From: a virus
Lineage: Duplodnaviria > Heunggongvirae > Uroviricota > Caudoviricetes
IMG/VR virus record: IMGVR_UViG_2778261354_000004
Reading direction: 5' to 3' (one strand)
DNA: 6,682 nucleotides
The position numbers and the translations under genes were made by a program. The notes below the pieces were generated by a model, which saw only the letters and a list, made by a program, of their open reading frames with translations, was not told the origin of the DNA and did no database searches. Below, piece after piece: positions 2,337 to 2,357 of the stretch; within the stretch, counting starts at the first letter, position 1, and each line of letters opens with the position of its first letter.

Positions 2337-2357
2337 ACCGCTTCGGCGGTTTTTTTT
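2337..2357 (+). terminator. intrinsic-terminator-like hairpin (ACCGC-UUCG-GCGGU) followed by T8
   Basis: Seen directly: 5-bp stem 2337-2341/2346-2350 closed by a UUCG tetraloop (2342-2345), then eight T at 2350-2357, in the 40-nt gap between the T stop and the tape measure start. Confidence 0.45.

Follow-up and report, generated by a model that had tools for sequence, protein, structure and literature searches.

Why should a hairpin resembling an intrinsic terminator sit immediately before a tape measure gene, within a phage tail operon? We pursued this question in a 6,682-nt stretch of Caudoviricetes DNA (IMG/VR record IMGVR_UViG_2778261354_000004), referred to here as the window. The original prediction held that the element would be a partial terminator by which expression of the tape measure gene is stepped down relative to that of the major tail protein and chaperone G.

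Tail genes of the window and the start of the tape measure gene

The window is a tail module of HK97 type from an E. coli lambdoid phage or prophage, with 99% identity to Escherichia phage vB_EcoS-689R5 and 96.6% to phage Evi, a complete relative. Every gene of the operon lies on the + strand, and the features were as follows.

84-533: HK97 gp10-like protein (Pfam)
530-874: tail completion protein (Pfam), stop codon at 872-874
895-918, + strand: twin hairpin ACCCGCC-GCT-GGCGGGT plus T7 (stem-loop 895-911, T-run 912-918), between the tail completion and major tail genes
935-1639: major tail protein, V (Pfam), with SD AGGAG and ATG 935
1639-2025: chaperone G (Pfam Phage_TAC_1), stop codon TAG at 2023-2025
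2037-2327, + strand: ORF of the T domain (Pfam Phage_tail_T, E 2e-19)
2325-2327, + strand: T stop codon TGA, 8 nt 5′ of the hairpin
2336-2351, + strand: putative terminator hairpin, stem AACCGC/GCGGTT with four G-C and two A-U pairs, UUCG loop at 2342-2345
2350-2357, + strand: T8 tract, the U-tract of the putative terminator, its first two T pairing with A2336-A2337
2363-2376, + strand: probable tape measure translation start, SD GGAG 2363-2366, 7 nt, then GTG 2374
2374-5601 (in-frame ATG at 2368), + strand: tape measure gene of HK97 type (Pfam TMP_3, Phage_HK97_TLTM, Tape_meas_lam_C)
5549-5935: M (Pfam)
5935-6633: L (Pfam)

The Pfam assignments of G, T and the tape measure gene (2368 or 2374 to 5601) placed the hairpin between the chaperone genes and the tape measure gene, where it had been proposed to lie. 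The window has the lambda-like G/GT frameshift chaperone pair, with an intact −1 frameshift site in which the slippery sequence A AAA AAG (2016-2022) is directly 5′ of the G stop codon TAG. The T domain is listed here as an ORF that is predicted to be expressed only as a G-T fusion through the −1 frameshift; the record for HK97 gp14 carries the annotation 'translated due to a -1 frameshift'.

GTG 2374 is the most likely start of the tape measure gene; the other in-frame candidate, ATG 2368, is separated from the SD GGAG by merely 1 nt. We regard GTG 2374 as the probable conserved start because the ATGGCGAC of homologues aligns there with the GTGGCGAC of the window. Some relatives had an ATG at the position equivalent to 2374, and in ON470583 the annotated tape measure start was apparently the same codon (tblastn led to locus 5296, where the codon is GTG). 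With this start, 16 nt separate the end of the T-run from the GTG, and the gap from the T stop to the tape measure start is 46 nt and contains no ORF.

Anatomy and folding of the hairpin

The short GC stem, UUCG tetraloop and T8 before the tape measure gene, together with their coordinates, were borne out by the sequence itself, by a terminator scan and by folding. As read from the sequence, AACCGC-TTCG-GCGGTT occupies 2336-2351 and T8 occupies 2350-2357; the 5′ arm runs from A2336 to C2341, the loop from U2342 to G2345 and the 3′ arm from G2346 to U2351, and the closing C-G pair makes this a c(UUCG)g tetraloop. The scan returned the same element (2336-2351, six pairs including four G-C, 4-nt loop). 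When the 25-nt hairpin was folded in isolation its energy was −8.5 kcal/mol (z = −3.7), a value that none of 200 shuffles equalled. The overall fold of a 56-nt context was unexceptional (z = −0.47), and the 2336-2351 hairpin was the sole element common to its MFE and centroid structures.

The sequence features of an intrinsic terminator were all present, namely a GC-rich stem (a minimum of 4-5 pairs being asked for), a short loop (3-8 nt asked for), an adjoining U-tract and an intergenic position on the same strand as the operon, 8 nt past the T stop. The 56-nt context folded into the terminator hairpin and weak flanking pairs only, with no competing or antiterminator structure, and the hallmarks of a regulated attenuator (a competing structure, a leader peptide or an effector-binding leader) were absent at this hairpin. 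A search of Rfam (E ≤ 1) returned nothing matching there. A lax scan of the window recovered 14 hairpin/T-run motifs against 6.3 ± 2.6 in shuffles; because such motifs were merely about twice as frequent as in shuffled sequence, one occurrence in the window is little proof, and the reality of the element was settled by its conservation across relatives.

Conservation of stem and T-run across relatives

To describe this conservation we used 217 loci with an HK97-type tape measure N-terminus, drawn from IMG/VR and from GTDB genomes; a scan of genome contigs yielded only 18 loci. The hosts were E. coli, Klebsiella, Leclercia, Enterobacter, Pantoea, Serratia, Brenneria and Pseudomonas, and identity extended down to ~57%. 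The loci were sorted by hairpin sequence and by the gap from T to the tape measure gene into 50 junction classes, and a motif was counted where a stem of at least 6 bp with at least four G-C pairs was found no more than 70 nt 5′ of the tape measure start, with at least five T in the 8 nt directly 3′ of the stem. Hairpin and T-run were present in 46 of the 50 classes, with 15-24 nt between the end of the stem and the tape measure start, against a background of 1.4% elsewhere in the same loci (44 of 3,197 scan windows).

There were 47 distinct hairpin sequences, in all of which the GC core was paired, and the loops were free to vary: CCGC stems carried TTCG, TGAG, TGCG or AGAA, CCTGC stems carried TGTG, TTTG or TGCG, and CCCGC stems carried more than eight different loops. 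In Stx2 phage 1717, which has no extra gene, AAACCTGC-TGTG-GCAGGTTT plus a T-run was found at the equivalent place. The CCGC-TGAG-GCGG and CCTGC-TGTG-GCAGG versions are present at T/H junctions of lambdoid prophages in E. coli O157:H7 Sakai. An alignment of 39 junction leaders (MAFFT) analyzed with RNAalifold gave no consensus pairs, since stems and loops of differing length shift the arms out of register; pairs were instead counted by a script, from the loop outward. That stem and T-run are both maintained across these sequences we read as the signature of selection for termination, beyond that for a mere RNA hairpin. The window hairpin (6 bp, about −8 kcal/mol) was among the weakest of the family, most others having energies of −9 to −19 kcal/mol. 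Divergence among the 56 window-type loci was too low to show selection on the stem, and the window type and the L220 type, both without cargo, differed over 33 nt in the loop only. Near-identical relatives had T-runs of T7 to T9 at this hairpin.

The layout at the T/H junction was not the only one of its kind. Between the tail completion and major tail genes, the stop codon at 872-874 is followed by the twin hairpin, T7, the SD AGGAG and ATG 935, in the same order as before the tape measure gene, and the twin hairpin is the stronger of the two. The twin was kept with varied stems in most relatives, where cargo was never present beside it, and was absent in Stx-type and some Pseudomonas loci. 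The HK97 record marks its counterpart (6692-6719) as a putative terminator.

Cargo genes at the T/H junction

The closest known parallel comes from HK97, the tail module of which belongs to the same family as that of the window (Pfam Phage_HK97_TLTM), with a tape measure N-terminus that is 91% identical. The putative terminator of HK97 gene 15 (AF069529, 8398-8422) lies in the same place as the window hairpin, immediately 5′ of the tape measure start, and has a matching layout of GC hairpin, T-run, SD and start codon. The stem-loops differ, being ACCCGC-TATCAA-GCGGGT in HK97 and AACCGC-TTCG-GCGGTT in the window, and HK97 has a promoter and the gene for the 62-aa, YebO-like gp15 between T and the terminator, where the window has 8 nt only. 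A terminator is also annotated after gene 15 in the records of HK544, HK633, HK446 and mEp234. HK97 gp15 is a superinfection exclusion protein that is expressed from the prophage as a self-contained unit, and morons come with a promoter and a terminator of their own, allowing expression in repressed prophages (PMC3594210).

Among the relatives of the window, at least 15 unrelated small genes, mostly of low GC, were found between T and the hairpin. They included genes for YebO/gp15-like proteins, a Zn-ribbon membrane protein, at least six unrelated lipoproteins, a VasI-like protein and, in Pseudomonas, an HNH protein, and the majority had no Pfam match. The GC content of the slot was 0.30-0.52, below that of the flanking tape measure gene (0.44-0.61) in each locus compared. 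From the T stop to the tape measure gene the gap was 13-51 nt without cargo, and with cargo it was 277-289, 364-368, 403, 436-449, 454, 461-567, 675-701, 918-982 or 1,688 nt. It is plausible that these are exclusion or defence genes expressed from the prophage. Loci with cargo in the T/H slot included the following.

L002, L017, L019, L069, L070, L075, L076, L085, L093, L094
L096, L098, L099, L106, L119, L124, L128, L157, L168, L192

One class, L092 (2466-3001), has a 140-aa cargo ORF on the reverse strand and was the sole cargo class without a + strand hairpin.

The borders of the slot could be located by aligning loci with and without cargo. The window and L019, which bears cargo, shared ~98% identity over G and T as far as ~2293, and were unrelated over the last ~11 T codons and the slot; the 5′ arm of the hairpin was the exact point where identity resumed, running on into the tape measure gene, so that hairpin, T8, SD and start were identical in the two. 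A second, independent pair behaved alike, with homology between L171 (without cargo) and L192 (with a 137-aa lipoprotein) resuming at or just before the hairpin. The two pairs therefore identify the hairpin as the constant right-hand border of the slot, and, since the last ~11 T codons differ (~2293-2327), the left border falls within the coding sequence of T, short of its stop codon.

L019 belongs to a group with a Zn-ribbon cargo cassette (L019 and L061 from IMG/VR, and L075 and L087 from Leclercia) in which the 12-nt hairpin core CCGCTTCGGCGG is identical to that of the window. These loci have a cargo of 111-114 aa with a GC content of 0.35-0.38 and a different T C-terminus, both of which the window lacks. 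The Zn-ribbon cargo keeps its CCGC-TTCG-GCGG hairpin in lineages whose tape measures are 78-100% identical, a constancy that fits a terminator borne by the cassette.

Junctions without cargo also kept the element. The window-type arrangement was found at ≥95% identity in 855 of 5,426 complete E. coli genomes (16%), and at least seven cargo-less lineages, including ones from Serratia and Pseudomonas lundensis, have hairpin and T-run (the window type, the CCGC-TGAG type, the 1717 type, L088, L095, L105 and L112). The exceptions were L101 and L154, which have no hairpin/T-run, and L089 from Pantoea, which has a hairpin with a weak T-run. In every cargo-less junction the T stop sits 0-10 nt from the stem.

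Judged by the features of morons, the window has one and lacks the others. There is a 3′ terminator just before the next phage gene, at the HK97 position and with the sequence of the L019 cassette. No additional ORF separates T from the tape measure gene, and the gap, which holds no cargo, has an undistinguished GC content of 0.48. A simple sigma-70 scan, which was also blind to promoters in the cargo slots of L019 and HK97, found no sigma-70-like site at 2327-2336, the nearest match (2377-2405) being inside the tape measure gene; across the window it gave five matches where 5.0 were expected from shuffles. Given its blindness in those slots, the silence of the scan in the window carries little weight. 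The slot of the window is the HK97 gene 15 moron slot, here empty. The hairpin may be a resident terminator or the remnant of a lost cassette, with sequence comparisons pointing in both directions.

Late transcription and the dosage proposal

Lambda, with its late operon under Q antitermination (read-through of tR′), shares the lambdoid organization seen in the relatives of the window, with Q 5′ of the lysis, head and tail genes. Its tail genes are arranged differently from those of the window in that T and H overlap by 8 nt and the U/V gap is 7 nt, and we found no terminator-like intergenic hairpins in lambda from Z through U, V, G and T to H. HK022 likewise had no hairpin in its 19-nt T/H gap. 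The element is therefore not required by the tail pathway in general.

RNA polymerase modified by Q is resistant to terminators. In both Evi, which is lambdoid, and HK97, Q is encoded upstream of a single lysis-head-tail operon, and the HK97 record lists seven same-strand putative terminators within the late operon. In lambdoid phages, Q antitermination turns on the late operons (PMC2629481, PMC7547250).

These observations bear directly on the proposal that the tape measure gene is stepped down relative to V and G. The same layout is conserved before the major tail gene, the product of which must be made in the largest quantity; stepping down the most abundant tail protein would be senseless, and the dosage argument for the copy at T/H is weakened thereby. 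Late transcription of phages with Q, such as Evi and HK97, is Q-dependent (PMC2629481, PMC7547250), the site is that of the HK97 gene 15 moron (PMC3594210), cargo cassettes of relatives end in this same hairpin, and the T/H junctions of lambda and HK022 are without one. The element is thus probably not a dosage valve for the tape measure protein. Of the original idea of a partial terminator, the terminator part gained from the sequence features, from the location in the T/H gap and from structural selection in relatives, and the step-down purpose is what the evidence disfavours.

A proposed terminator for transcription that is not antiterminated

We propose, with a probability of roughly 55%, that the element is a Rho-independent terminator that forms the fixed right-hand border of the T/H slot, acting on transcription that has not been antiterminated and being read through by Q-modified polymerase. 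Polymerase lacking Q would release its transcript at the GC hairpin and U-tract, ahead of the tape measure and distal tail genes. The transcripts concerned would be those of the repressed prophage, those from cargo promoters, and spurious or read-in transcription, and the tape measure and distal tail genes would thereby stay silent in the lysogen. During late lytic growth, Q-modified polymerase would pass the hairpin, with little or no effect on tape measure dosage. Insulator terminators of mobile elements, such as that of Tn916, are alike in their proposed role, which is to block premature or leaky expression of the element unless antitermination is active (PMC11658703). For Tn916 this role has experimental support (PMC11658703), whereas for the window we infer the role from sequence and context alone, and this applies to termination itself, to the physiological state in which it would act and to its efficiency.

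Several observations sit uneasily with this insulating role. The window hairpin is one of the weakest in its family. The window has no recognizable promoter between T and the hairpin, and no obvious lysogen transcript to be ended. The cargo-less arrangement is common and stable, which hints at a role independent of cargo that an insulator would explain loosely, and the twin hairpin before the major tail gene is never accompanied by cargo. Nor is Q-mediated read-through necessarily complete. In a related and clearly less favoured reading, which we put forward tentatively, the hairpin would be no remnant of a lost moron but a resident and selected terminator of the tape measure leader, twinned with the one before the major tail gene, that works throughout this tail module family with or without cargo, as a firewall against non-antiterminated transcription. 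The ready-made 3′ end and the shielding of the essential gene downstream would then have made the T/H junction a hotspot for cargo, with at least 15 unrelated sets of promoter and gene acquired, and some late transcription might stop there.

Alternative explanations of the element

Four other explanations may be considered, listed here from most to least likely: residual partial termination, an effect on mRNA stability, the absence of any remaining function, and an effect on translation. The first would have the terminator still partly effective on Q-modified polymerase, so that in lytic growth the tape measure and distal tail genes would be transcribed less than V, G and GT. Few copies of the tape measure protein are needed, the element is kept even where cargo is absent, with a fixed distance of 15-24 nt to the tape measure start, the conserved T-run points to termination as the selected activity, and the seven same-strand putative terminators of the HK97 late operon could sum to a gradient. 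We nevertheless consider it improbable, given that an equivalent hairpin and T-run directly precede the gene of the most abundant tail protein, that the relatives encode Q, that lambda and HK022 do without a hairpin at T/H, and that the leader has no alternative or antiterminator structure. The T-run counts against the idea that the hairpin guards the 3′ end of V-G-T, or the 5′ end of the tape measure message, after endonucleolytic cuts and so sets the half-lives of the segments. The V-G-T block does lie between two stable hairpins (895-911 and 2336-2351), and intercistronic hairpins that stabilize upstream segments are well known in polycistronic mRNAs, a precedent in its favour. A U-tract would be unnecessary for such protection, yet it is as strictly conserved as the stem, and the stem in the window is short (6 bp), making this explanation somewhat less probable again.

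The hairpin might also be a neutral leftover, the terminator of a lost Zn-ribbon membrane protein cassette of the L019, L075 and L087 type that is now useless in the window lineage. In support of such an origin, the Zn-ribbon cargo retains its CCGC-TTCG-GCGG hairpin across lineages with 78-100% identical tape measures, the window has the hairpin, SD and start of L019, and the reverse-strand class L092 alone among cargo classes has no + strand hairpin. Against uselessness, at least seven independent cargo-less lineages have an intact hairpin and T-run and only two are without, the window and L220 types have diverged over 33 nt solely in the loop, and the arrangement is present in 16% of complete E. 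coli genomes; we rate a functionless remnant as slightly less probable than an effect on mRNA stability. More doubtful is a role in translation, in which the U-tract would serve as an S1 binding or standby site and the hairpin would shield the RBS from long-range pairing. U-rich leaders can enhance initiation, which would suit such a role, as would the constant spacing of hairpin, T-run, SD and start and the same layout before V; however, a GC hairpin abutting the U-tract would not be needed, and the closure of cargo cassettes and the absence from lambda and HK022 would be left unexplained. Finally, it is very unlikely that a ribosome at the T stop masks the 5′ arm and thereby links tape measure transcription to GT frameshifting.

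Place of the element among known features

Taken as a terminator for non-antiterminated transcription, the element is an ordinary and largely known feature that corresponds to the HK97 gene 15 terminator without the cargo, and represents no newly found dosage control. For the window itself the consequence is small, the signal being of the standard intrinsic kind and its site carrying a terminator annotation in HK97-like phages already. Modestly new is that, in a much-used cargo slot, the terminator is the conserved element and is kept across genera even where cargo is absent. It provides a precise landmark for finding prophage cargo, for example candidate superinfection-exclusion and lipoprotein genes, and raises the question of whether morons bring their own terminators or settle ahead of resident ones.

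The hairpin before the major tail gene gave two further observations. The region 854-916 had a sub-threshold Rfam match to isrK (21 bits against a gathering score of 50, E = 0.31), an Hfq-binding sRNA of the Salmonella Gifsy-1 prophage (Rfam), and the match was probably driven by the twin terminator hairpin. As at T/H, the length of the T-run at this hairpin also differed among relatives. The annotated major tail CDS of ON470583 begins at an ATG further upstream (~883 in the window) and would run through the twin hairpin; this start is probably over-extended, an annotation enabled by the difference in T-run length.
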